From Escherichia coli (GTDB lineage: Bacteria; Pseudomonadota; Gammaproteobacteria; Enterobacterales; Enterobacteriaceae), in NCBI RefSeq assembly GCF_013315695.1, contig NZ_CP054353.1: a stretch of 64,000 nucleotides of DNA. One strand, 5' to 3'. Position numbers and translations under genes: made by a program. The notes below the pieces were generated by a model that did no database searches, had not been told where the DNA came from, and saw only the letters and a program-made list of their open reading frames with translations. How positions within the stretch are numbered: position 1 is the stretch's first letter; each line of letters begins with the position of its first letter. Below, in pieces: positions 2,903 to 32,035 of this stretch.

Positions 2903-5900
2903 GCCAGCATTTACCTTTGGTCGCCGCACAGCCCGGCATCTGGATGGCAGAAAAACTGTCAGATTTACCCTCCGCCTGGAGCGTGGCGCATTACGTTGAG
3001 TTAACCGGAGAGGTTGATGCGCCATTACTGGCCCGCGCGGTGGTTGCCGGATTAGCGCAAGCAGATACGCTGCGGATGCGTTTTACGGAAGATAACGGCG
3101 AAGTCTGGCAGTGGGTCGATGATGCGCTGACGTTCGAACTGCCAGAAATTATCGACCTGCGAACCAACATTGATCCGCACGGTACTGCGCGGGCATTAAT
3201 GCAGGCGGATTTGCAACAAGATCTGCGCGTCGATAGCGGTAAACCACTGGTCTTTCATCAGTTGATACAGGTGGCGGATAACCGCTGGTACTGGTATCAG
3301 CGTTATCACCATTTGCTGGTCGATGGCTTCAGTTTCCCGGCCATTACCCGCCAGATCGCCAATATTTACTGCGCATGGCTGCGTGGCGAACCAACGCCTG
3401 CTTCGCCGTTTACGCCTTTCGCTGATGTAGTGGAAGAGTACCAGCAATACCGCGAAAGCGAAGCCTGGCAGCGTGATGCGGCATTCTGGGCGGAACAGCG
3501 TCGTCAATTGCCGCCGCCCGCGTCACTTTCTCCGGCACCTTTACCGGGGCGCAGCGCCTCGGCAGATATTCTGCGCCTGAAACTGGAATTTACCGACGGG
3601 GAATTCCGCCAGTTGGCTACGCAACTTTCAGGTGTGCAGCGTACCGATTTAGCCCTTGCGTTGGCAGCCTTGTGGCTGGGGCGATTGTGCAACCGCATGG
3701 ACTACGCTGCCGGATTTATCTTTATGCGTCGACTGGGCTCGGCGGCGCTGACGGCTACCGGACCCGTGCTCAACGTTTTGCCGTTGGGTATTCACATTGC
3801 GGCGCAAGAAACGCTGCCGCAACTGGCAACCCGACTGGCAGCACAACTGAAAAAAATGCGCCGCCATCAACGCTACGACGCCGAACAAATTGTCCGTGAC
3901 AGTGGGCGAGCGGCAGGAGAGGAACCGCTGTTCGGTCCGGTACTCAATATCAAGGTATTTGATTACCAACTGGATATTCCTGGTGTTCAGGCGCAAACCC
4001 ATACCCTGGCAACCGGTCCGGTTAATGACCTTGAACTGGCCCTGTTCCCGGATGAACACGGTGATTTGAGTATTGAGATCCTCGCCAATAAACAGCGTTA
4101 CGATGAGCCAACGTTAATTCAACACGCTGAACGCCTGAAAATGCTGATTGCGCAGTTCGCCGCGGATCCGTCGCTGTTGTGCGGCGATGTCGATATTATG
4201 CTGCCAGGCGAGTATGCGCAGCTGGCGCAGATCAACGCCACTCAGGTTGAGATTCCAGAAACCACGCTGAGCGCGCTGGTGGCAGAAAAAGCGGCAAAAA
4301 CACCGGATGCTCCGGCGCTGGCAGATGCGCGCTACCAGTTCAGCTATCGGGAAATGCGCGAGCAGGTAGTGGCGCTGGCAAATCTCCTGCGTGAGCGTGG
4401 CGTTAAACCGGGCGACAGCGTAGCGGTGGCGCTACCGCGCTCGGTCTTTTTGACTCTGGCGCTACATGCAATTGTTGAGGCTGGTGCGGCCTGGTTACCG
4501 CTGGATACCGGCTATCCGGACGATCGCCTGAAAATGATGCTGGAAGATGCGCGTCCGTCGCTGTTAATCACCACTGACGATCAACTGCCGCGCTTTGCCG
4601 ATGTTCCAGATTTAACCCGCCTTTGCTATAACGCCCCGCTTACACCGCAGGGCAGTGCGCCGCTGCAGCTTTCACAACCGCACCACACGGCTTATATCAT
4701 CTTCACCTCCGGTTCCACCGGCAGACCAAAAGGGGTAATGGTCGGGCAGACGGCTATCGTTAATCGCCTGCTTTGGATGCAAAACCATTACCCGCTTACA
4801 GGCGAAGATGTCGTTGCCCAAAAAACGCCGTGCAGTTTTGATGTCTCGGTGTGGGAGTTTTTCTGGCCGTTTATTGCCGGGGCTAAACTGGTGATGGCTG
4901 AACCGGAAGCGCACCGCGACCCGCTCGCTATGCAGCAATTCTTTGCCGAATATGGTGTAACGACCACGCACTTTGTGCCGTCGATGCTGGCGGCATTTGT
5001 TGCATCGCTGACGCCGCAAACCGCTCGCCAGAGTTGCGCGACGTTGAAACAGGTTTTCTGTAGTGGTGAAGCCTTACCGGCTGATTTATGCCGCGAATGG
5101 CAACAGTTAACCGGCGCGCCGTTGCATAATCTATATGGCCCGACGGAAGCGGCGGTAGATGTCAGTTGGTATCCGGCTTTTGGCGAGGAACTGGCAGAGG
5201 TGCGCGGCAGCAGTGTGCCGATTGGTTATCCGGTGTGGAATACGGGCCTGCGCATTCTCGATGCGATGATGCATCCGGTGCCGCCGGGTGTGGCGGGAGA
5301 TCTCTATCTCACCGGTATTCAACTGGCGCAGGGGTATCTTGGACGACCCGATCTGACCGCCAGCTGCTTTATTGCCGATCCTTTTGCCCCAGGTGAACGG
5401 ATGTACCGTACCGGCGATGTGGCCCGCTGGCTGGATAACGGCGCAGTGGAGTACCTCGGGCGCAGTGACGATCAGCTAAAAATTCGCGGGCAGCGTATCG
5501 AACTGGGCGAAATTGATCGCGTGATGCAGGCGCTGCCGGATGTCGAACAAGCCGTTACCCACGCCTGTGTGATTAACCAGGCGGCAGCCACTGGTGGTGA
5601 TGCGCGTCAGTTGGTGGGCTATCTGGTGTCGCAATCAGGTCTGCCGTTGGATACCAGCGCATTACAGGCGCAGCTTCGTGAAACATTGCCACCACATATG
5701 GTACCGGTGGTTCTGCTGCAACTTCCACAGTTACCACTTAGCGCCAACGGCAAGCTGGATCGCAAAGCCTTACCGTTGCCTGAACTGAAGGCACAAGCGC
5801 CTGGGCGTGCGCCGAAAGCGGGCAGTGAAACGATTATCGCCGCGGCATTCTCGTCGTTGCTGGGTTGTGACGTGCAGGATGCCGATGCTGATTTCTTTGC

Positions 5901-20555: not shown

Positions 20556-20667
20556 AGTCAGAGTGAGGGGGAATGTGCTGAGCGTTCCCCTTACTCTCAG
20601 CCCGAGCATGTTGATAGCAATTAAGCCCTCTTAATTCAGGAGGGCATTTGTATTACCGGAGGTTTAG

Positions 20668-20865
20668 ATGTTTGATTCACTGGCAAAAGCCGGAAAATAT
20701 TTAGGTCAGGCGGCGAAACTGATGATTGGTATGCCTGATTACGACAACTATGTCGAACATATGCGGGTTAACCATCCCGATCAAACGCCGATGACCTACG
20801 AGGAGTTTTTCCGTGAGCGGCAGGACGCGCGCTACGGTGGAAAAGGCGGCGCGCGCTGCTGCTAA
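20668..20865 (+). CDS. ybdD: Small DUF466-family protein YbdD, the conserved partner of cstA
   Basis: 65-aa [61 protein letters not shown]... Confidence 0.85.
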
Positions 20866-20874
20866 ATTTGTACG

Positions 20875-21963
20875 TCAGGCTTTAAACGATTCCACTTTTT
20901 CGAACGCTGCACGCAACGTATCCGGTGTCAGCGTGACCGGCAGGTAATGAATGGATTCCACCGGACGTAAGGTGTGGGCAATCACTTTGTCGATCTCCGC
21001 CTGATTATTGATATCCACTTCCAGCTCCGCCAGCGTAGTCGGCAGATGAAAACGCTGATACGCCCCGGTTAATTGCGCCAGCACATCATCCTGACCCAGC
21101 AAGGCGCTTTGCACCAGAATTCCGTAGGCGACTTTGGTGCCGTGGAGAAACTTCTCGGTTTGCGGCAGCACGGTCAGACCGTTATGCACGGCATGGGCCG
21201 CCGCCACACGCGTAAAACGATCGCCCAGACCACCGACCATTCCACCTCCGGCGATAATCGCATCCACCACATCGCAAAATGATTGCGTTAACTGGTGATT
21301 TTGCTGATCGCTCAGCGCCTGTTCGCTACTGTTTAACAAGACGTCGCGAATAGCCTGCGCATTATTGATCCCTAGCCGCACGGTTAGCGGCAACGTTTCT
21401 GGTTGCGGGGCCAGCACCACCGCTTCATACCATTTCGCCAGCGTGTCACCGATCCCCGCCAGCAGATATTGTTGCGGCGCGTTGAGGATAATCTCCGGTT
21501 CCACCAGCACCATAAAATTGGCGTCGTCGAAAATCTCATAATGCAGCGCTTGTCCGGCATCGTTGTACCAGACAGAGAGCGGTGTCCAGGCTGCGCAGGT
21601 AGCGGCGATCGTCGGAACGGCAACAAACGGCAGACCGAGACGGCGGGCGAGGGCTTTCGCGGTGTCGAGCAGTGCGCCGCCGCCGACGCCAATCACCACG
21701 CTGCGATCGTCACCGGACTCAGCCGCCAGTTGTTGTACATCGCTTTCGCTGCAATGACCACGAAACAAAATATGCTTTACCCCTGGCAGTTCAAACGCAG
21801 GCGGCAGTTTGGTTTGTGCCGCAGCAATGGCGCGTTCGCCGTAGATCCACACTGCGCGAGAAAGTTGTTCATCAGTGAAAAAATCGTGCAGGTGATTGAA
21901 ACTTCCGGGATGTGAAAAGTAGTTAGCCGGGCCGACGACCACGCGGATAGGATTGTGAGGCAT
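20875..21963 (-). CDS. ybdH: Iron-containing group III alcohol dehydrogenase family protein YbdH (hydroxycarboxylate dehydrogenase)
   Basis: 362-aa ORF MPHNPIRVVVGPANYFSHPGSFNHLHDFF... Confidence 0.88.
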   Translation of the reverse strand: MPHNPIRVVVGPANYFSHPGSFNHLHDFFTDEQLSRAVWIYGERAIAAAQTKLPPAFELPGVKHILFRGHCSESDVQQLAAESGDDRSVVIGVGGGALLDTAKALARRLGLPFVAVPTIAATCAAWTPLSVWYNDAGQALHYEIFDDANFMVLVEPEIILNAPQQYLLAGIGDTLAKWYEAVVLAPQPETLPLTVRLGINNAQAIRDVLLNSSEQALSDQQNHQLTQSFCDVVDAIIAGGGMVGGLGDRFTRVAAAHAVHNGLTVLPQTEKFLHGTKVAYGILVQSALLGQDDVLAQLTGAYQRFHLPTTLAELEVDINNQAEIDKVIAHTLRPVESIHYLPVTLTPDTLRAAFEKVESFKA

Positions 21964-22071
21964 GTTGTGTTGTCCTTATTGTTTTATTTAGACATCTAAA
22001 CGTCTTGATTGCCAAATACTAGCATCGTGTTATAGTGCCTTCAACACGCAACTTCGTCAGGTACAATAAAA

Positions 22072-23232
22072 ATGACAAATAACCCTCTGATTCCACAAAG
22101 CAAACTTCCACAACTTGGCACCACTATTTTCACCCAGATGAGCGCGCTGGCGCAGCAACACCAGGCGATTAACCTTTCGCAAGGCTTTCCTGATTTTGAT
22201 GGTCCGCGCTATTTACAAGAGCGGCTGGCGTACCACGTTGCCCAGGGGGCAAACCAATACGCGCCTATGACTGGCGTGCAGGCCTTGCGCGAGGCGATTG
22301 CTCAGAAAACGGAACGTCTGTATGGCTATCAACCGGATGCCGATAGTGATATCACCGTAACGGCAGGGGCGACGGAAGCGTTATATGCAGCGATTACCGC
22401 ATTGGTGCGCAATGGTGATGAAGTGATCTGCTTTGATCCCAGCTATGACAGTTACGCCCCCGCCATCGCGCTTTCTGGGGGAATAGTGAAGCGTATGGCA
22501 CTGCAACCACCGCATTTTCGCGTGGACTGGCAGGAATTTGCCGCATTGTTAAGCGAGCGCACCCGACTGGTGATCCTCAACACCCCGCATAACCCCAGTG
22601 CAACTGTCTGGCAGCAGGCTGATTTCTCCGCTCTGTGGCAGGCGATTGCCGGGCACGAGATTTTTGTCATTAGCGATGAAGTCTACGAGCACATCAATTT
22701 TTCACAACAGGGCCATGCCAGCGTGCTGGCGCATCCGCAATTGTGTGAGCGAGCGGTGGCGGTGTCATCGTTTGGCAAGACCTATCATATGACCGGCTGG
22801 AAAGTGGGGTATTGCGTTGCACCTGCGCCCATCAGCGCCGAGATCCGCAAAGTGCATCAGTATCTGACCTTTTCGGTGAATACCCCGGCACAGTTGGCGC
22901 TTGCCGATATGCTACGTGCAGAACCTGAGCATTATCTTGCGTTACCGGACTTTTATCGCCAGAAGCGCGATATTCTGGTGAATGCCTTAAATGAAAGTCG
23001 GCTGGAGATTTTACCGTGCGAAGGTACATACTTTTTGCTGGTGGATTACAGCGCCGTATCTACGATGGATGATGTTGAGTTTTGCCAGTGGCTGACGCGG
23101 GAGCACGGCGTAGCGGCGATTCCGCTGTCGGTGTTTTGCGCCGATCCCTTCCCACATAAACTGATTCGTCTCTGTTTTGCCAAAAAGGAATCGACGTTGC
23201 TGGCAGCAGCAGAACGCCTGCGCCAGCTGTAG
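22072..23232 (+). CDS. ybdL: PLP-dependent aminotransferase YbdL (methionine aminotransferase)
   Basis: 386-aa ORF MTNNPLIPQSKLPQLGTTIFTQMSALAQQHQAINLSQGFPDFDGP... (class I aminotransferase). Confidence 0.9.
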   Translation: MTNNPLIPQSKLPQLGTTIFTQMSALAQQHQAINLSQGFPDFDGPRYLQERLAYHVAQGANQYAPMTGVQALREAIAQKTERLYGYQPDADSDITVTAGATEALYAAITALVRNGDEVICFDPSYDSYAPAIALSGGIVKRMALQPPHFRVDWQEFAALLSERTRLVILNTPHNPSATVWQQADFSALWQAIAGHEIFVISDEVYEHINFSQQGHASVLAHPQLCERAVAVSSFGKTYHMTGWKVGYCVAPAPISAEIRKVHQYLTFSVNTPAQLALADMLRAEPEHYLALPDFYRQKRDILVNALNESRLEILPCEGTYFLLVDYSAVSTMDDVEFCQWLTREHGVAAIPLSVFCADPFPHKLIRLCFAKKESTLLAAAERLRQL

Positions 23233-23862
23233 TTATTTAACCGTCCAGGCGCGGGAAAATTGACGGTCGGCAAACAACTCTTGCAGGCCGTTAATTTGCT
23301 TCAGGCGCAACACTTCGTCGCTGTCCATTCCCAGCTCTTTGCCAATTTTATTATCGTCCCATCCCAACTGGCTGAGTTCACGGACGATTTCTGACATGGC
23401 AGTGATTTGGTGACGTCCACGAGCGCGATTATGACGAATAGTCGCGGCGATGCGTTGATTACGCGTACCTTCCAGACAGGTCACCGGCAAATAACCTTTT
23501 AAGCGTAATTTTAACGATGATGAGCCTTTACCAATTTCATGGCGGTGAAAACCATCCACGATTTCCAGGGCATTTTTATCCGTATGCGTGACCACAATGG
23601 GTTGGGTAAAACCATCTATTTCAATGGATTTTTTCAGCAGTTTTTTTTCGGGTGGTGCCACGTTGTTTGGGTTGTAATCATTAGGCATAAGTTGGCTGTT
23701 TTTAACCCACAGAACGCAATCCACTGGCTCTTCACGAAAGGGGCTAACCTGATGGATCGCCATGCGGATTTCATTAATCGCTTTGATGCGATCATCTTCC
23801 GGCAAGCTGGCGAGAAATTGGGTTAAATCCTGCGTTAATCGTTGTTGCATAGTATCCCCCAT
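23233..23862 (-). CDS. ybdM: ParB/sulfiredoxin-like domain protein YbdM (IbrB-like)
   Basis: 209-aa ORF; ParB-like core …IVDGFHRHE…; its start overlaps the 3' end of ybdN by 28 nt. Confidence 0.85.
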   Translation of the reverse strand: MGDTMQQRLTQDLTQFLASLPEDDRIKAINEIRMAIHQVSPFREEPVDCVLWVKNSQLMPNDYNPNNVAPPEKKLLKKSIEIDGFTQPIVVTHTDKNALEIVDGFHRHEIGKGSSSLKLRLKGYLPVTCLEGTRNQRIAATIRHNRARGRHQITAMSEIVRELSQLGWDDNKIGKELGMDSDEVLRLKQINGLQELFADRQFSRAWTVK

Positions 23863-25055
23863 TCCTGACGTTTTCCTTTTATCCGTTCGTTATAACGCTG
23901 ATAGTTCTTCGCTTTCGTAGGACTAAATGATAATGCCCGGCACCAGTAATCGTTATTGAGTAAAACTTTGCATATTCGCCGCCAGGAGGGGATATCTTTC
24001 GCGCCAATGTCCCCTTGCTGGGTTTGTGGAACTTCGATGCCTTTTTTCTGATACCAGTGCAAATAAATGGCGATTTTATTGCGGTAATGCTCAGCTGTTT
24101 TTTCCGGCATGCTATTGAGCAGCAATAATGCATATTCTTGCCAGTCTAAATGTTCTGGCTTGAGGATTTTCCGATGACCATAAAAATGATTATCATGTCC
24201 GGCGTAAATGCCGCCACTTTTTACCCCGCTGACTCGTGCGCACATAGCAGCCCAGCGATCCGGTTCGATAACGTGATAGAGCCATAATCCTTGCCGTTGC
24301 TCCGGGCCAAAAGGTTCGCAAATTCGCATATGACGCAGAGGAACGCCTGCCTGATACATTATATTATACAGTGGGTTACAGAGCTGTTGATGGTTAGCAT
24401 ACCAGGTCCAGATATCAGCCACTTTCCAGTCGTAGATGGGGTAAATGTACCAACTATGACCGCCTGGTGCGGCGGTGGTCCAGGGCTTATCATCGGCAAA
24501 ACGTTGTTTATTTAAACTGGCGATGGCGACAAAACGGTTGTAGGACTCATCTGCACGGATGCCGATCATCATCGCCGCCGGACGTTTTTGTGAAAACCAT
24601 TCAGCAAACTCACGCACAAATTGTTCGAAGGTCATGCCAGGCTGGTAAAAGGAGAAAAAGTCAGGATCGGTTATCGCATCTTGCGGAGGCTGACGCACCC
24701 ATTCGACATCAGGTTCCCAGCACTGCCATTCGGGTTGGTATTGAGAAAGGGAATTTTGCGTCGTAAGCGGGAGCGCAACCCAGTAAAACTCTTCGATGAC
24801 ATCGGCGTAAAACTCACGTAATGACTGAACATAGTTAATAGTGCATGAGAACTGCGCTTCCCAGTCGATAAACAAAACGCAGATTTTTTTGCCCATTTGT
24901 CGGACAATTTCGGCGGTCAGATGCAGCATTAATCCGGAATCTTTACCACCCGAAAAAGAAACGCAGACACGGGGTAGGGTATTAAGTGTCCAGGTAATAC
25001 GTTCTTTTGCAGCTTCCAGAATATTCAGTGGAAGCGGGATTTTATAAATAGACAT
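23835..25055 (-). CDS. ybdN: PAPS-reductase-like (PP-loop ATP pyrophosphatase family) protein YbdN (IbrA-like)
   Basis: 406-aa ORF with the PP-loop motif SFSGGKDS near the N-terminus. Confidence 0.85.
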   Translation of the reverse strand: MSIYKIPLPLNILEAAKERITWTLNTLPRVCVSFSGGKDSGLMLHLTAEIVRQMGKKICVLFIDWEAQFSCTINYVQSLREFYADVIEEFYWVALPLTTQNSLSQYQPEWQCWEPDVEWVRQPPQDAITDPDFFSFYQPGMTFEQFVREFAEWFSQKRPAAMMIGIRADESYNRFVAIASLNKQRFADDKPWTTAAPGGHSWYIYPIYDWKVADIWTWYANHQQLCNPLYNIMYQAGVPLRHMRICEPFGPEQRQGLWLYHVIEPDRWAAMCARVSGVKSGGIYAGHDNHFYGHRKILKPEHLDWQEYALLLLNSMPEKTAEHYRNKIAIYLHWYQKKGIEVPQTQQGDIGAKDIPSWRRICKVLLNNDYWCRALSFSPTKAKNYQRYNERIKGKRQEWGILCNND

Positions 25056-25201
25056 CTAAAAACGCTCTCTGAACGTTACGGGGTGACTCGTGAGATGAAT
25101 CCGCTAATTATAGGATAAACGAAGCAAGATAGAGCACATTATTTTATATTCACATAATGAATTAATTGATGCGTAATATATTATTTGTCAGTGGTAATGA
25201 A

Positions 25202-26104
25202 TCAGAAGCTATCATTTAAACGATCTATGAATCGGGAGAAGACAAGGTTGTTCAACGAAGCCTTGTTATAGGAAATATAAAGTTTAACCGCAGGAAGAGG
25301 TTGTTCCAGTTTTATTTCTTTTAACTTCAAAAAGTCACGATGTAAATTGTACAGTTCGGTGGGCACAATGCCTAATAAGTCAGTAACAGAAATACTATTA
25401 ATTATAGTCATCAAAGAAGAACTGCGAAATGAAACTTTACGGTTCATAAAGCGTTCATCTATGTCCATTTGAATTTCGTCAATCCCTGCTGATTTAGATA
25501 TCAACAGGGTGAATTCTTCGGCGATAATTTGTTCATAGTTACTGGTATCAGTAATACGAGGATGTTTGTTGCTACATATAAGGGAATTGCGAATAGTGTG
25601 TAACGGCATGCAGATGACAGAGCGACTAATTACTGGTTGTAGTGTAATTGCCAGGTCAGTTTTGCGTTGAACCAACAGTTCTTCGGCATTTTCAGCTGAA
25701 AGCAGTATGTCATGGCATTCTATATCGATTGAAGTATCTTGTCTAAGACAGCGGATTAGCATGTTGTTATTAGTACAAGAAATAAGCTGAGGACCGTAGA
25801 TAATAAAATTTTTCTTTAGTTCAGACTTATTAACGATATTGATCGTTTGTTCAAGGCCTCTGAGATTTTTCTCAAGATGGTGATGCAGGTTTAACCCTGT
25901 TGTAGTCGGCGCGATACCTTTCCCTGAGCGAATGAATAACGGGTCATTAAATTGCGCACGTAAACGTTGTAACGACTGACTAACAGCAGAGGGCGTTATA
26001 TATAATGATTCTGCCGCTTTACTAATGCTGAGATGTTGATAAATACATTCAAATATAACCAGTAAATTGAGGTCAAATTTTTTTAGATCATAAAGATTAG
26101 CCAT
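25202..26104 (-). CDS. ybdO: LysR-family transcriptional regulator YbdO
   Basis: Start MANLYDLKKFDLNLLVIFECIYQHLSISKAAESLYITPSAVSQSLQRLR (HTH), about 300 aa; AT-rich coding sequence. Confidence 0.85.
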   Translation of the reverse strand: MANLYDLKKFDLNLLVIFECIYQHLSISKAAESLYITPSAVSQSLQRLRAQFNDPLFIRSGKGIAPTTTGLNLHHHLEKNLRGLEQTINIVNKSELKKNFIIYGPQLISCTNNNMLIRCLRQDTSIDIECHDILLSAENAEELLVQRKTDLAITLQPVISRSVICMPLHTIRNSLICSNKHPRITDTSNYEQIIAEEFTLLISKSAGIDEIQMDIDERFMNRKVSFRSSSLMTIINSISVTDLLGIVPTELYNLHRDFLKLKEIKLEQPLPAVKLYISYNKASLNNLVFSRFIDRLNDSF

Positions 26105-26308
26105 AACATACTCCGTTGTATTGTCTCTTCCATAAATCATTCACTTGATCAATAATGTTGTTGTATTTATATGTGTTATGTTTTTCTGCTTAACTTTGGA
26201 TTAAGATTTTCTAAAATAGCATAGCTGTCAGGTGGGTTACGAGCAATTCATGCTTTTTTAGGATGGTTGAAAAGCAGGGATATATTTCAACCATCCATGA
26301 ATTATCTT

Positions 26309-27055
26309 TTATTTATTCCCCATAATGATATTAAGCGTTTTCTGATCGGGCAACCCCACGGCCTGTTGCAGTGTATTTTCCTTACTCATGTAATAGATAG
26401 CTGGCGTGACATTTGCCCCCAGATCGTCCATCAGTTTCTCGTTATCGCTTAACACTTTCATTTGCTCTGTACTTACGTTTGCAGGCACGTTTAGCTTAAG
26501 CTTGCCACCAGAGGCTTCATATTCTTGCCAGGTTTTTGCGGGATCTTTGGAGGCAAGAATTGCCGCTGCTGTCGCCGGGCTTTCTGGCTTGATAACGCCA
26601 ACCAACAATGTTCTTAATTGCACTTTGCCAGAATCTACCCACGGGCGAGCCTGCTGCCAGAACTGTTTACAATATGGGCAGAACGGATCGGCGAAGACGT
26701 AGACAATGACCGGCGCGTCTTTTTTACCGTCGAGGAGCCAGTGGGATTGTTCCATCCGTTGCCACATTTCACGTCCGGCGGGTGCGTAAATTTCTTTTTC
26801 GATAAGCGTGTTACTCAGGTTTTCACCTTTTTCGTTGTACATGTAACCAGAGATAGCGTGCTTACCATCTGGAGTCAGGTAGATGGTGACGCCCATATCC
26901 TGATACTTACCGAGATAACCTTTCATTCCTCCAGGGGCATCGAACGTTTTGATGATTGTAATACCCTGTTTTTCAATCGCTTTTACTGGGGCAGGAAGTT
27001 CCTCTGCGAAGGCGGTTGCAGGAAGCAGGGCCAGTAAAAGTATCTTTTTTAACAT
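26309..27055 (-). CDS. dsbG: Periplasmic thiol:disulfide interchange protein DsbG
   Basis: Start [21 protein letters not shown] (signal peptide); CPYC active-site motif present; 248 aa. Confidence 0.9.
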
Positions 27056-27426
27056 TAATTTGTCCTTTTCAGTCAGTGCAAAAGTCGAGTAAAAGGCATA
27101 ACCTATCACTGTCATAGGTAAGAGCTTAGATCAGGTGATTGCCCTTTGTTTATGAGGGTGTTGTAATCCATGTCGTTGTTGCATTTGTAAAGGCAACACC
27201 TCAGCCTGCAGGCAGGCGCTGAAGATACCAAAGGGTAGTTCAGATTACACGGTCACCTGGAAAGGGGGCCATTTTACTTTTTATCGCCGCTGGCGGTGCA
27301 AAGTTCACAAAGTTGTCTTACGAAGGTTGTAAGGTAAAACTTATCGATTTGATAATGGAAACGCATTAGCCGAATCGGCAAAAATTGGTTACCTTACATC
27401 TCATCGAAAACACGGAGGAAGTATAG
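27056..27426. promoter_or_regulatory. dsbG/ahpC divergent promoter region (OxyR-regulated by established knowledge; sites not precisely mapped here)
   Basis: Intergenic; ATAG/CTAT-like elements around 27320-27365. The boundaries given are the whole intergenic span, not a mapped site. Confidence 0.45.
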
Positions 27427-27990
27427 ATGTCCTTGATTAACACCAAAATTAAACCTTTTAAAAACCAGGCATTCAAAAACGGCGAATTCATCGAAATCAC
27501 CGAAAAAGATACCGAAGGCCGCTGGAGCGTCTTCTTCTTCTACCCGGCTGACTTTACTTTCGTATGCCCGACCGAACTGGGTGACGTTGCTGACCACTAC
27601 GAAGAACTGCAGAAACTGGGCGTAGACGTATATGCAGTATCTACCGATACTCATTTCACCCACAAAGCATGGCACAGCAGCTCTGAAACCATCGCTAAAA
27701 TCAAATATGCGATGATCGGCGACCCGACTGGCGCCCTGACCCGTAACTTCGACAACATGCGTGAAGATGAAGGTCTGGCTGACCGTGCGACCTTCGTTGT
27801 TGACCCGCAGGGTATCATCCAGGCAATCGAAGTTACCGCTGAAGGCATTGGCCGTGACGCGTCTGACCTGCTGCGTAAAATCAAAGCAGCACAGTACGTA
27901 GCTTCTCACCCAGGTGAAGTTTGCCCGGCTAAATGGAAAGAAGGTGAAGCAACTCTGGCTCCGTCTCTGGACCTGGTTGGTAAAATCTAA
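27427..27990 (+). CDS. ahpC: Alkyl hydroperoxide reductase peroxiredoxin subunit AhpC
   Basis: 187-aa [54 protein letters not shown]... Confidence 0.95.
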
Positions 27991-28010
27991 GTTCCGCAAT
28001 CGCGTAATTA

Positions 28011-28118: not shown

Positions 28119-29684
28119 ATGCTCGACACAAATATGAAAACTCAACTCAAGGCTTACCTTGAGAAATTGACCAAGCCTGTTGAGTTAATTGCCACGCTGG
28201 ATGACAGCGCTAAATCGGCAGAAATCAAGGAACTGTTGGCTGAAATCGCAGAACTGTCAGACAAAGTCACCTTTAAAGAAGATAACAGCTTGCCGGTGCG
28301 TAAGCCGTCTTTCCTGATCACTAACCCAGGTTCCAACCAGGGGCCACGTTTTGCAGGATCCCCGCTGGGCCACGAGTTCACCTCGCTGGTACTGGCGTTG
28401 CTGTGGACCGGTGGTCATCCGTCGAAAGAAGCGCAGTCACTGCTGGAGCAGATTCGCCATATTGACGGTGATTTTGAATTCGAAACCTATTACTCGCTCT
28501 CTTGCCACAACTGCCCGGACGTGGTGCAGGCGCTGAACCTGATGAGCGTACTGAACCCGCGCATCAAGCACACTGCAATTGACGGCGGCACCTTCCAGAA
28601 CGAAATCACCGATCGCAACGTGATGGGCGTTCCGGCAGTGTTCGTAAACGGGAAAGAGTTTGGTCAGGGCCGCATGACGTTGACTGAAATCGTTGCCAAA
28701 ATTGATACTGGTGCGGAAAAACGTGCGGCAGAAGAGCTGAACAAGCGTGATGCTTATGACGTATTAATCGTTGGTTCCGGCCCGGCGGGTGCAGCGGCAG
28801 CAATTTACTCCGCACGTAAAGGCATCCGTACCGGTCTGATGGGCGAACGTTTTGGTGGTCAGATCCTCGATACCGTTGATATCGAAAACTACATTTCTGT
28901 ACCGAAGACCGAAGGCCAGAAACTGGCAGGTGCGCTGAAAGTTCATGTTGATGAATACGACGTTGATGTGATCGACAGTCAGAGCGCGAGCAAACTGATC
29001 CCGGCAGCGGTTGAAGGCGGCCTGCATCAGATTGAAACAGCTTCTGGCGCGGTACTGAAAGCACGCAGCATTATCGTGGCGACCGGTGCAAAATGGCGCA
29101 ACATGAACGTTCCTGGCGAAGATCAGTATCGCACCAAAGGCGTGACCTACTGCCCGCACTGCGACGGCCCGCTGTTTAAAGGCAAACGCGTAGCGGTTAT
29201 CGGCGGCGGTAACTCCGGCGTGGAAGCGGCAATTGACCTGGCGGGTATCGTTGAGCACGTAACGCTGCTGGAATTTGCGCCAGAAATGAAAGCCGACCAG
29301 GTTCTGCAGGACAAACTGCGCAGCCTGAAAAACGTCGACATTATTCTGAATGCGCAAACCACGGAAGTGAAAGGCGACGGTAGCAAAGTCGTAGGTCTGG
29401 AATATCGCGATCGTGTCAGCGGCGATATTCACAACATCGAACTGGCCGGTATTTTCGTCCAGATTGGTCTGCTGCCGAACACCAACTGGCTGGAAGGCGC
29501 AGTCGAACGTAACCGCATGGGTGAGATTATCATTGATGCGAAATGTGAAACCAACGTCAAAGGCGTGTTCGCAGCGGGTGACTGTACGACGGTTCCTTAC
29601 AAGCAGATCATCATCGCCACTGGCGAAGGTGCCAAAGCCTCTCTGAGTGCTTTTGACTACCTGATTCGCACCAAAACTGCATAA
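28119..29684 (+). CDS. ahpF: Alkyl hydroperoxide reductase flavoprotein subunit AhpF
   Basis: [33 protein letters not shown]..., 521 aa, RBS aggag upstream. The track ORF is extended 10 codons upstream. Confidence 0.93.
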
Positions 29685-29713
29685 GAAGAAGTAAGATTCA
29701 CCTGCAATTGCTT

Positions 29714-29746
29714 AGCCGCCGGGGTCAAACCTGGCGGCTTTTTTAT
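29714..29746 (+). terminator. Rho-independent terminator of ahpCF
   Basis: agccgccgg…ccTggcggct stem followed by tttttt. Confidence 0.7.
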
Positions 29747-29752
29747 TGCATT

Positions 29753-29790
29753 AAAAAGCCCTGCAGGGATGGCTCCGGGCAGGGCGGGAT
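29753..29790 (-). terminator. Rho-independent terminator of uspG (reverse strand)
   Basis: gccctgc…gcagggc stem; on the reverse strand it is followed by ttttt (A-run 29753-29757 on the + strand). Confidence 0.6.
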
Positions 29791-29804
29791 ACTTATTCTG
29801 GCAA

Positions 29805-30233
29805 TTAACGCACAACCAGCACCGGCAAATTGGCGTGGCGGATCACGCTCGAGGCGTTAGAACCCAACAGATGAGTTGAAATCGATGGGTTACGCGAACC
29901 AATCACTACTACATCTGCATCAAGTTCTTTCGCTAACTCGTTAACTTCATCCCGCACACTACCAAAACGGACATGTTGCTTAATGCGGGAAGGATCGATG
30001 GTGAAGTGGCTGACCATCGTTTGCAGACGTTCTTCTGCTTCATGTTGCAGATGCTCTTCAAAACGACGTACATCAGCGGCAAAACGGTGCAGGCTCAGGC
30101 TGGCTGACCCCGGTAGTACGTGAAGTAGATGAATAACTCCGTCATCCTGGGCGAGGAATTCAGCGTGGCGAACCGCTTTGTCGCTCAATTCCATTTCGAA
30201 AACATCCACTGGCATGATGATTGTTTTGTACAT
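29805..30233 (-). CDS. uspG: Universal stress protein UspG
   Basis: Start [29 protein letters not shown]…, 142 aa, RBS ggagag upstream. The track ORF is extended 11 codons upstream. Confidence 0.9.
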
Positions 30234-30356
30234 AAGCATTCTCTCCTTGTTTTTGCATGTATACATAACAGCACATTATTGGTTATGAATCTATGATTTG
30301 CGAGGCTGATTTGATCTGAATTTGCTATTGAGCTGGAAAATAAATAAAACCAGGCG

Positions 30357-30446
30357 CTACCAGCGTTGTTCAAGGTATAGCACTGCAGCAACAATAATTG
30401 CGGCTATGAATATATAAAATGCAGTGATACCGAGAGCTTCGCTCAT
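30357..30446 (-). CDS. Candidate 29-aa hydrophobic small ORF (MSEALGITAFYIFIAAIIVAAVLYLEQRW); hypothetical
   Basis: ATG…TAG ORF found by manual reading in the uspG–rnk spacer. It has one predicted transmembrane helix and a weak RBS, and is below the ORF-track size cutoff. Confidence 0.2.
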   Translation of the reverse strand: MSEALGITAFYIFIAAIIVAAVLYLEQRW

Positions 30447-30588
30447 ATGAGGTTCCGCAGATGAATAACCAGTTCAGATTAGAATGCTGCGCTTAAGAGC
30501 AAAATGATAAATCTGGTTGATATTTGAGCGGAAAGAGGATGCGAGTGCATCCTCTGGGCAAAGCGAGTTATCGCTTGTGCAGATGGGA

Positions 30589-30999
30589 TTAAAGCAGGTA
30601 ATCGCCAGCAGCTTCTGGCTGGTATTCGAGTTCCAGCACTTCAAGGTGGGTTGCAACGCCGCCTGGAAGTTCCCAGTGAATGGAATCGCCAACGCGCAGC
30701 CCCAGCAGTGCGGCACCTACCGGAGCCATAACGGAAAGCTGAGTATTGCTGTCGGTCATTTTTGCCGGATACACCAGCGTGCGCACACGCACTTCGCCAT
30801 CGCTAAGATTGCGGAATTTAACCCGGCTGTTCATTGTCACCACGTCGTGTGGCATCTCTTCTGGCGAACACATTTGGGCGCGATCCAACTCTGCGTTTAA
30901 CGCGTCGGCGATTGGCAAACCAGCATAGGCGGGTTGCTCCAGCAGAATATCGATGCGTTCGGCATCCAGGTCGTTAATGATGATAGTTGGTCTGGACAT
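30589..30999 (-). CDS. rnk: Regulator of nucleoside diphosphate kinase Rnk (GreA/GreB C-terminal-domain-like)
   Basis: 136-aa [46 protein letters not shown]... Confidence 0.9.
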
Positions 31000-31040
31000 T
31001 TTTACTCCATGTCGTCGGTACTGCGAGTGTCGCAGATAAA

Positions 31041-31082
31041 CATACCCAAAAGAAAACCCTCACCGTCAGGCGGCGAGGGTTT
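31041..31082 (-). terminator. Rho-independent terminator downstream of rna (reverse strand)
   Basis: aaaccctc…gagggttt stem; the reverse strand is followed by ttcttttggg. Confidence 0.55.
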
Positions 31083-31228
31083 AACGCACATGATGATACT
31101 GACTGTTGCTCACTCTTTGAAGTGATTTGCGTCACATTCAGGGAATTCCTCAATGTAGCGCATTATGTATAAATCTTAATCGTCATGGTTTATGGAAGAC
31201 GAATTAGCGTGTTTTGTAAATCAGAGGA

Positions 31229-32035
31229 TTAATAACCTGCTTTATCAATCACAAAGGTTTTGCCACAGTTGCCTGGGTGTGGTTGTGGCAAGAATGAGTT
31301 GGCAGAAAGCGGAGCGTTGATGGCGTCAGCTTTGATCGAGATCTGAATTTCAGTCAAATACGCAGGGTTACCCTGGCACGTTAGCTTAACTGCTTTCACG
31401 TTCTCTTTTCCCCAGCTTTTGGCAAAGGCGGCATCAAAGTCACGGCGGCTCACTGTTTTACCGTAGTTATCCGCAAGGAATTTTCCGGCTTCGCTCTCTT
31501 TAATTTCTTGATTCAGGCGTACCATCGTGCCGAAGTATGCGTCTGGATCAAAACCAAAGCAGGCACCGTGTTTGGCATATTCGTAGCGTTCCAGGCAGGA
31601 ACGTCCGCCAGCTCCTGGCATGACTTCACTTAGTTTAGCTGCCGTTTCCAGCGATAACCCGGTTTCCGGAGATGAACACATTCGGCTGGCGCGCGCTTCT
31701 GATAGATTCGGGATTGGGCGAGTAGCGCAACCGAAGCGCATCCAGCGGCGTTCATCAACACCACGGGCAGCAACCGATTTAGGCAATCCTGGCCACAGAC
31801 CATGTACGGTCAGAAAATCAGCTTTGTTGGTCGTTTCGGTTTGCAGGCGACATTCATCTCGTTCGTTACGATTTCGATCGTGTTGACTCTGGCAAAATCC
31901 GGTTTGCCAGGAGAGGGCCAGGACATAGCGATCAAAATCGCCATACTGTTTTGCCTGCAACGCCACGGCGTTGGCAGAAGAGAAGGGAAGCAGAGAAACC
32001 GCGAGCAACGCGGCGTTACGCCAGAATGCTTTCAT
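31229..32035 (-). CDS. rna: Periplasmic ribonuclease I (RNase T2 family)
   Basis: Start MKAFWRNAALLAVSLLPFSSANA (signal peptide), 268 aa. An in-frame ATG lies 6 codons upstream. Confidence 0.9.
   Translation of the reverse strand: MKAFWRNAALLAVSLLPFSSANAVALQAKQYGDFDRYVLALSWQTGFCQSQHDRNRNERDECRLQTETTNKADFLTVHGLWPGLPKSVAARGVDERRWMRFGCATRPIPNLSEARASRMCSSPETGLSLETAAKLSEVMPGAGGRSCLERYEYAKHGACFGFDPDAYFGTMVRLNQEIKESEAGKFLADNYGKTVSRRDFDAAFAKSWGKENVKAVKLTCQGNPAYLTEIQISIKADAINAPLSANSFLPQPHPGNCGKTFVIDKAGY

Follow-up and report, generated by a model that had tools for sequence, protein, structure and literature searches.

Two forms of the uspG-rnk locus in Escherichia coli and the small membrane protein gene yldA

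In Escherichia coli K-12 the genes uspG and rnk flank ybdR, which encodes a member of the Zn-dependent alcohol dehydrogenase family. In the E. coli window analysed here, the whole 64-kb stretch of DNA under study, the two genes are separated by a short spacer (Table 1), and the locus raises the questions of what has become of ybdR and whether a 29-codon open reading frame in the spacer is a gene. The interval 29600-31200 contains, in order, the end of ahpF (plus strand), uspG (minus strand), the spacer, and rnk (minus strand). An earlier note on this sequence had given the K-12 order as uspG-ybdR-rnk and had reported a gap of 355 bp from which ybdR is missing. That order is correct, ybdR does lie at this site in K-12, and the gap is as described. 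The gene is also absent relative to K-12, but not in the sense of having been deleted, as the data show replacement of a whole segment. Neither an open reading frame nor a remnant of ybdR is present between uspG and rnk, and a tblastn search with the K-12 YbdR protein gives no match in the spacer or anywhere else in the 64 kb (best E 0.37).

Table 1. Features of the uspG-rnk interval of the window, and a repeat found upstream of yldA in other loci.
Feature	Position	Strand	Details
uspG, universal stress protein G, 142 aa	29805-30233	-	NCBIfam NF012000, 312.9 bits (cut-off 189); RefSeq
uspG-rnk spacer, 355 bp	30234-30588		Bounded by the uspG start codon (ends 30233) and the rnk stop codon (begins 30589)
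yldA-uspG spacer, uspG 5' region and promoter, 'window-class' form	30234-30356	-	
276-bp segment in place of 1611 bp in K-12	30252-30527	.	blastn boundaries
yldA, 29 codons, predicted single-pass small membrane protein	30357-30446	-	Peptide MSEALGITAFYIFIAAIIVAAVLYLEQRW; NCBIfam NF041476, RefSeq WP_001287361.1
Haplotype-specific region upstream of yldA (5' UTR, possibly promoter)	30447-30527	-	
rnk 3' RNA hairpin	30534-30555	-	AGAGGAUGC-ACUC-GCAUCCUCU, then UUCCG; 9-bp stem; right edge of the replaced segment
Smaller first hairpin of the rnk 3' UTR	30558-30580	-	GCACAAGCGAUAACUCGCUUUGC; predicted fold
rnk, nucleoside diphosphate kinase regulator, 136 aa	30589-30999	-	NCBIfam NF004396, 201.6 bits (cut-off 109)
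PmrA-box-like repeat	L027 5508-5524; same position in L031, L036, L042, L043, L045, L046, L051, L057 and L058		

Two forms of the locus and their history

Alignment of the window to K-12 by blastn shows homology extending to position 30251, 18 bp upstream of the uspG ATG, and resuming at 30528. The segment 29700-30251 (uspG and its flanks) is 93.5% identical to K-12 and the segment 30528-31100, which includes rnk, 98.95%; the sequences between them have no detectable similarity. The replaced stretch takes in everything upstream of the uspG ribosome binding site, ybdR, yldA and the 81 bp upstream of yldA, and it ends at the hairpin that follows rnk, presumably because this is the first stretch conserved enough for recombination. 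A megablast search of 5426 complete E. coli genomes with 29700-31100 as the query finds the same contiguous arrangement in 1820 of them. The 276-bp segment is present in 1817 genomes (~33%) and the K-12 segment in 3605 (~66%), and together the two segments account for 5422 of the 5426.

The two forms differ in the small gene and in the sequences on both sides of it. The K-12 YldA peptide (MAEAFYILIGFLIMAAIIVMAVLYLENHS) is identical to that of the window at 15 of 29 residues, and the two yldA alleles differ with pS of 0.78 and pN of 0.35; the window allele is closer to that of some Citrobacter strains (pS 0.63, pN 0.13). The region upstream of yldA has no similarity to its K-12 counterpart, and two blocks upstream of the gene, AAATATCAACCAnATTTATCATT and CTAAyCTGA, are conserved between the window and Citrobacter sp. 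R56, NCU1 and C. amalonaticus S646. Over the 80 nt preceding uspG the window shares 93% identity with E. albertii and 63% with K-12, with the Citrobacter freundii complex and the R56 group in between (70-74%). The K-12 version of this region is 72-74% identical to Salmonella and C. sedlakii. The K-12 promoter class is widespread in the Enterobacteriaceae (e.g. Salmonella, Enterobacter, C. sedlakii) and the window class is common only to Escherichia and part of Citrobacter.

These alignments show the uspG-rnk locus to be a two-state polymorphism in E. coli, with forms that differ by replacement of a complete segment. The spacer in the window is very probably an intact and common ybdR-less form, with three functional elements: the rnk 3' hairpins, yldA, and the uspG promoter region. 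Alternative cassettes in the accessory genome of E. coli offer a parallel, as here too two non-homologous segments, each common in the species, alternate between conserved flanks. The uspG-rnk cassette differs from these in that it is tiny, both of its versions keep a very divergent copy of yldA, and in the sequences read its junctions show neither repeats nor a tRNA nor genes of mobile elements.

The non-coli Escherichia genomes in our sample are E. albertii and two divergent genomes (L004 and L005), and they have the window arrangement with an identical or near-identical YldA. Their yldA segment and upstream region are 89-96% identical to the window and their rnk genes 93-97%, and since the divergence of the segment tracks that of the flanking genes, the window form appears to have been vertically inherited within Escherichia. 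In E. coli the window form is carried by CFT073, IAI39, SMS-3-5 and 042, the last three of which encode the same protein (WP_001287361.1); the 355-bp spacers of IAI39 and 042 are identical to that of the window and that of SMS-3-5 differs by one base. ybdR is present in K-12 and O157:H7, and in an O103:H2 strain the match to the query is split as it is in K-12. We take CFT073 to be of phylogroup B2, IAI39 and SMS-3-5 of F and 042 of D, and K-12, O157:H7 and O103:H2 to be of A, E and B1, respectively. The division of A/B1/E from B2/D/F is a deep split of E. coli, and the two forms seem to be distributed along deep lineages.

From these comparisons we lean towards an older ybdR-less form and a derived K-12 form within Escherichia. 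Recombination through homologous flanks, in uspG on one side and at the rnk hairpin on the other, would then have brought the K-12 form, with its ybdR, divergent yldA and other uspG promoter, into the ancestor of phylogroups A, B1 and E; on the simplest account this happened once. Our preference for this direction is a modest one because the K-12 ybdR has no closer donor among the sampled species, the K-12-class promoter is widespread, and E. fergusonii, like most other non-coli Escherichia, lies outside the sample.

The main alternative is that both forms are ancient, either having coexisted since before the split of E. coli and E. albertii or having been exchanged between Escherichia species, and that neither is a recent import. 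The window class of yldA allele, upstream spacer and uspG promoter is found in the C. freundii complex and the R56 group, and the K-12 class in Salmonella, C. sedlakii, C. koseri and Enterobacter. The K-12 ybdR is 80.5-81% identical in nucleotide sequence to that of Salmonella, with the flanking uspG, rnk and ahpF genes at 79-84%, and among the sampled species we found no donor closer than ordinary orthologues. Given this ordinary divergence and the broad distribution of the K-12-class promoter, the K-12 form could also be old. The uspG gene beside the junction is mosaic, and when its differences are polarised against other Escherichia genomes no clear direction emerges. However, all three of the sampled non-coli Escherichia genomes have the window form only, and the division of the reference strains along the A/B1/E versus B2/D/F line is a better fit to one replacement than to prolonged coexistence, so that we consider two ancient forms rather unlikely and continue to favor a derived K-12 state.

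A third account, in which a K-12-like ancestor simply lost ybdR by deletion and the spacer is the scar, is very improbable. It draws some support from the presence of ybdR in two thirds of the E. coli genomes as well as in Salmonella, C. sedlakii and many Enterobacter, from repeated loss of the gene in other genera (e.g. Enterobacter asburiae TN152 is without ybdR and E. asburiae INSAq146 has it), and from the occurrence of true deletions in E. coli itself. But the window has no remnant of ybdR, homology to K-12 is lacking on either side of the ybdR site as well, in yldA and in the uspG promoter, and the same arrangement with an identical YldA is present in E. albertii and the two divergent Escherichia genomes. 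Moreover, the one true deletion derivative observed, E. coli HH97 (NZ_CP116409.1), looks different, with a K-12-type locus and K-12-type yldA in which ybdR persists as a 192-bp frameshifted pseudogene fragment (L085, 2560-2751). HH97 is an independent and genuine ybdR deletion, and its yldA is annotated as a longer open reading frame of 141 bp. Replacement of the whole segment, not loss of one gene from it, is thus our reading of the difference between the window and K-12.

There are further departures at this site. E. coli HS-02 (NZ_CP172818.1; L086, 1961-2238) has a window-type locus with a uspG-rnk spacer of only 278 bp in which no yldA is annotated; the match covers just a portion of the 276-bp segment (93.8% identity), and the strain seems to have lost yldA or to carry a damaged copy. 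Across the family, the fetched loci show four arrangements, with neither gene, yldA only, ybdR only, or both, and both ybdR states occur under a single species name (E. asburiae). Gene turnover thus has a small hotspot here. We also note that NZ_JAATUR010000029.1 (L005), labelled Escherichia coli SCPM-O-B-8794, is 95.6% identical to K-12 in rnk, 95.3% in ahpF and 88.2% in rna, a divergence more in keeping with a cryptic clade or a separate Escherichia species than with E. coli proper. Elsewhere in the window, the region 20653-27990 (ybdD to ahpC) is 93.6% identical to K-12 compared to 96.7-98.1% for the neighbouring blocks, and looks like another deeply divergent segment. Two nearby spacers also differ in length: the ahpC-ahpF spacer (27990-28005) has ~15 unaligned bp in the window and ~130 bp in K-12, and the cstA-ybdD spacer (20571-20653) has ~80 bp and ~150 bp, respectively.

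yldA is a conserved small-protein gene

The 29-codon open reading frame was described in the earlier note as a minus-strand ATG...TAG frame encoding a single hydrophobic helix, preceded by a weak ribosome binding site. These features are as reported; the best 19-residue Kyte-Doolittle window of the peptide averages 2.67, typical of a transmembrane helix, and the Shine-Dalgarno sequence is weak (GGAA, some 8-11 nt before the ATG). The frame had been put forward as a new candidate that may be spurious, and on both counts the databases and relatives indicate otherwise. It is the known small-protein gene yldA, annotated by RefSeq at exactly the same position, where WP_001287361.1 is listed as 'small membrane protein YldA'. 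The peptide matches NCBIfam NF041476 (membrane_YldA, an equivalog model) with 59 bits against a cut-off of 45 (E 3.2e-16) and with residues 1-29 aligned to profile positions 1-29. RefSeq annotates yldA under the match in 14 of 14 full-length records among the megablast matches listed. The Pfam model PF23689 (YldA-like) scores the window peptide at 22.9 bits (E 9e-5), below its gathering score of 27, and the K-12 peptide at 73.6, and it appears to be centred on the K-12 class. The finding is thus real but ordinary.

The closest characterised counterpart is YldA (b4734) of K-12 MG1655, which was named in 2018 after a chromosomal SPA tag detected its peptide (PMC6001520); it is for the K-12 allele alone that the product has been shown to be made. 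Like the window protein it belongs to the NF041476 equivalog, is 29 aa long with a single hydrophobic helix, is encoded on the same strand ~140 nt downstream of rnk, and has in common with it M1, E3, A21, V22, L25 and E26, with the motif AVLYLE. The two genes differ in having no detectable nucleotide similarity, in their upstream regions and in their downstream neighbors; K-12 yldA lies tail-to-tail with ybdR at a distance of 3 nt, whereas in the window the next gene after yldA is uspG, on the same strand.

An open reading frame of 29 codons is in itself not beyond chance, because several others of 20-31 codons share the spacer, and with its length alone being unsurprising the case for yldA rests on the comparison with other genomes. 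Among 80 loci from other Enterobacteriaceae, fetched using Rnk as the query, 34 have a yldA-like frame ~130-150 nt downstream of rnk, each with exactly 29 codons and an ATG start. The distance between rnk and yldA, which share a strand, is 142 nt in the window and 128-150 nt in 31 of the 33 listed loci. A set of 35 sequences from about ten enterobacterial genera (33 of the fetched loci, the window and K-12) retains the 29 codons and the ATG throughout; the differences are distributed over the three codon positions as 4646/3506/8353, with a mean pN/pS of 0.37, and most of the alternative frames carry stops. Six residues are invariant, namely M1, E3, A21, V22, L25 and E26, the last four within the C-terminal motif AVLYLE. 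Within Escherichia (n=8; the window, AF3, IAI39, SMS-3-5, 042, E. albertii and the two divergent genomes), all ten of the variable columns in yldA are at third codon positions, and such columns make up 11% of the open reading frame as against 18-27% of the flanking spacer. The window and E. albertii genes differ at seven nucleotides, all of them synonymous. The reading frame is therefore kept among relatives, and the substitution patterns show that purifying selection acts on yldA, a genuine gene whose product belongs to the YldA family.

It is scarcely credible that the frame is untranslated and is conserved because a non-coding element overlaps it (an extended rnk 3' UTR, for instance, or regulatory DNA upstream of uspG): the weak Shine-Dalgarno sequence, the failure of the scans to call either a promoter or a terminator around yldA, and the demonstration of expression for the K-12 allele only, with the peptide sequence of the window allele absent from the searched literature, would all fit such an element, but the third-position substitutions, the length and start codon fixed across genera amid other frames that mostly contain stops, the clustering of invariant residues in a peptide motif, and the synthesis of the K-12 homologue in vivo (PMC6001520) argue for a translated gene.

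The 3' end of rnk and transcription of the spacer

The earlier note also described a GC-rich hairpin just downstream of rnk, placed at about 30536-30555. It is present with a shift of one base, the inverted repeat GAGGATGC-GAGT-GCATCCTC being at 30535-30554, with one further pair completing the 9-bp stem. It is not a feature of this uspG-rnk spacer in particular, and is instead a conserved element of the rnk 3' end found in 78 of 80 enterobacterial loci; the stem is exact in 53 of the other loci and has small variants in 25 more, and it is kept whether or not yldA or ybdR follow. The minus-strand RNA after rnk folds into two hairpins (-24.2 kcal/mol, z = -5.2), of which this is the second. In an alignment of 32 sequences 99.7% of its cells are paired; six of the nine pairs never vary, two change only from A-U to G-U, and one changes from C-G to U-A or U-G. 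The one-sided changes in the stem all give G-U on the rnk sense strand, and that they are tolerated on that strand only points to an element of the rnk 3' end that works as RNA. The AAGCG/CGCUU stem of the smaller hairpin recurs in other genera with variable loops.

The element resembles intrinsic terminators and stabilising hairpins of 3' UTRs in having a G+C-rich 9-bp stem and a 4-nt loop after the stop codon, and in being conserved as RNA on the sense strand, although the sequence of its stem is almost invariant across genera, unlike those of such hairpins. It also departs from intrinsic terminators in its tail (UUUCCGCU), and is absent from the calls of the terminator scan, which requires at least five U in eight, because only three U follow the stem. 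It may serve as a terminator, a partial terminator or a stabiliser. In Citrobacter amalonaticus AUH_CA_2023_1 (L019) the hairpin occurs twice (5445-5464 and 5608-5627), ~160 bp apart, with extra sequence between rnk and yldA, and this may represent a small duplication or insertion. Directly upstream of rnk is a match to Rfam RF01771 (Enterobacteria rnk leader) at 31045-31153 on the minus strand, with 120.7 bits against a gathering score of 50; a terminator-like hairpin at 31054-31082, also reported by the terminator scan, sits inside this leader. The Rfam scan of 29600-31300 is empty for the spacer apart from a snoRNA match of 27 bits against a threshold of 45, which we treat as chance.

The promoter scan finds no consensus sigma-70 site for either yldA or uspG. 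Reading by eye identifies a candidate extended -10 (TGTTATGTA) with a -35 of TTCATA before uspG, which is absent from the scan output. A dedicated terminator for yldA was considered and rejected, the region following the gene having no stable predicted structure (z = 0.25). The lack of a consensus promoter, together with the lack of a terminator separating yldA from uspG, makes it possible that transcription runs on from rnk and continues into uspG. The gene might be transcribed from a weak promoter within 30447-30527 or by read-through of the rnk hairpin with its poor U-tract.

A different upstream element is seen in ten Enterobacter/Lelliottia loci. Each contains, once, a perfect direct repeat resembling a PmrA/BasR box (YTTAAK-N5-YTTAAK, mostly CTTAAT-CCAGG-CTTAAT), which in all ten is ~26 nt upstream of the yldA ATG and is found nowhere else in 84 loci (Table 1). 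Neither the window nor K-12 has the motif, and a PmrA box was rejected for the window yldA. In the Enterobacter/Lelliottia-type loci, too, its position is a poor fit to a normal PmrA-activated promoter, there being no -10 at the expected distance (PMC10570014). On a speculative view of YldA as a signalling modulator, the repeat upstream of the Enterobacter yldA would hint at envelope-stress control in some genera.

YldA, YoaI and implications for K-12 as a reference

YldA is distantly related to another single-pass small membrane protein, YoaI (b1788), which activates EnvZ-OmpR. The YoaI model (NCBIfam NF041475) gives the window YldA 30 bits (E 4e-7), which is below its cut-off of 45, and we thus regard YldA as a distant relative of YoaI and not as a member of that family. 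A YldA profile of 33 sequences aligned to K-12 YoaI by hhalign gives a probability of 91.7%, with YldA residues 2-28 placed on YoaI residues 7-33. Plain BLASTP of YldA against YoaI yields no alignment, and the relationship is detected by profile methods alone. The proteins also differ in that YoaI is 34 aa long and encoded at another locus (yeaK-yoaI).

Ser26, Val27 and Glu31 of YoaI are invariant, and the E31A/Q substitutions abolish both binding and activation of EnvZ (PMC11429745). The alignment pairs E3, A21, V22 and E26 of YldA with E8, S26, V27 and E31 of YoaI, respectively, so the invariant Val and Glu of YoaI are kept and are invariant in YldA, and the invariant Ser26 is replaced by an equally invariant Ala21. 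Drawing on remote homology between two very short hydrophobic peptides, we tentatively suggest that YldA may be a single inner-membrane helix with its N-terminus out and C-terminus in, which could bind a larger membrane protein in the manner of YoaI, possibly a sensor kinase. The juxtamembrane Glu26, as the counterpart of YoaI Glu31, would take part together with the helix in modulating the partner. It is a good deal more speculative that YldA is a YoaI-type modulator acting via Glu26 and that its allele pair, together with the uspG promoters and the state of ybdR, would leave stress signalling differently wired in B2/D/F strains as compared to A/B1/E strains; we regard this broader proposal as doubtful.

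We note some further observations on the two small genes. In K-12 both yoaI (L084, 8079-8183) and yldA (L003, 18331-18420) lie tail-to-tail with a convergent gene, 0-3 nt from its stop codon, and the pairs yeaK-yoaI and ybdR-yldA are both listed as convergent 'excludons' (PMC12288877). In a fluoride transcriptome report, yldA stands just before the 'Downregulated genes' heading, apparently in an up-regulated cluster (PMC10100675). Besides the naming paper (PMC6001520), these two reports are the only ones in the literature searched to mention YldA.

Much of what the spacer contains is already known: yldA is named, NCBIfam and Pfam models exist for its product, RefSeq annotates it, and the absence of ybdR is a frequent natural variant. 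As a discovery the finding is of little weight. The literature searched contains nothing on ybdR and phylogroups and nothing on the peptide sequence of the window allele, and we did not find in it the replacement of the whole segment, the concomitant swap of the uspG promoter and a divergent yldA, the probably derived state of K-12, or the relation of YldA to YoaI. This relation, with the critical Glu conserved, provides a specific hypothesis, inexpensive to pursue, for a small protein that is still uncharacterised. The arrangement that looks like a loss when set against K-12 is probably the older one in Escherichia, a reminder against treating K-12 as the ancestral reference. Since the two forms exchange both the uspG promoter and the yldA allele, results obtained in K-12 on YldA or on the regulation of uspG may not transfer to strains of phylogroups B2, D and F, such as uropathogenic E. 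coli.
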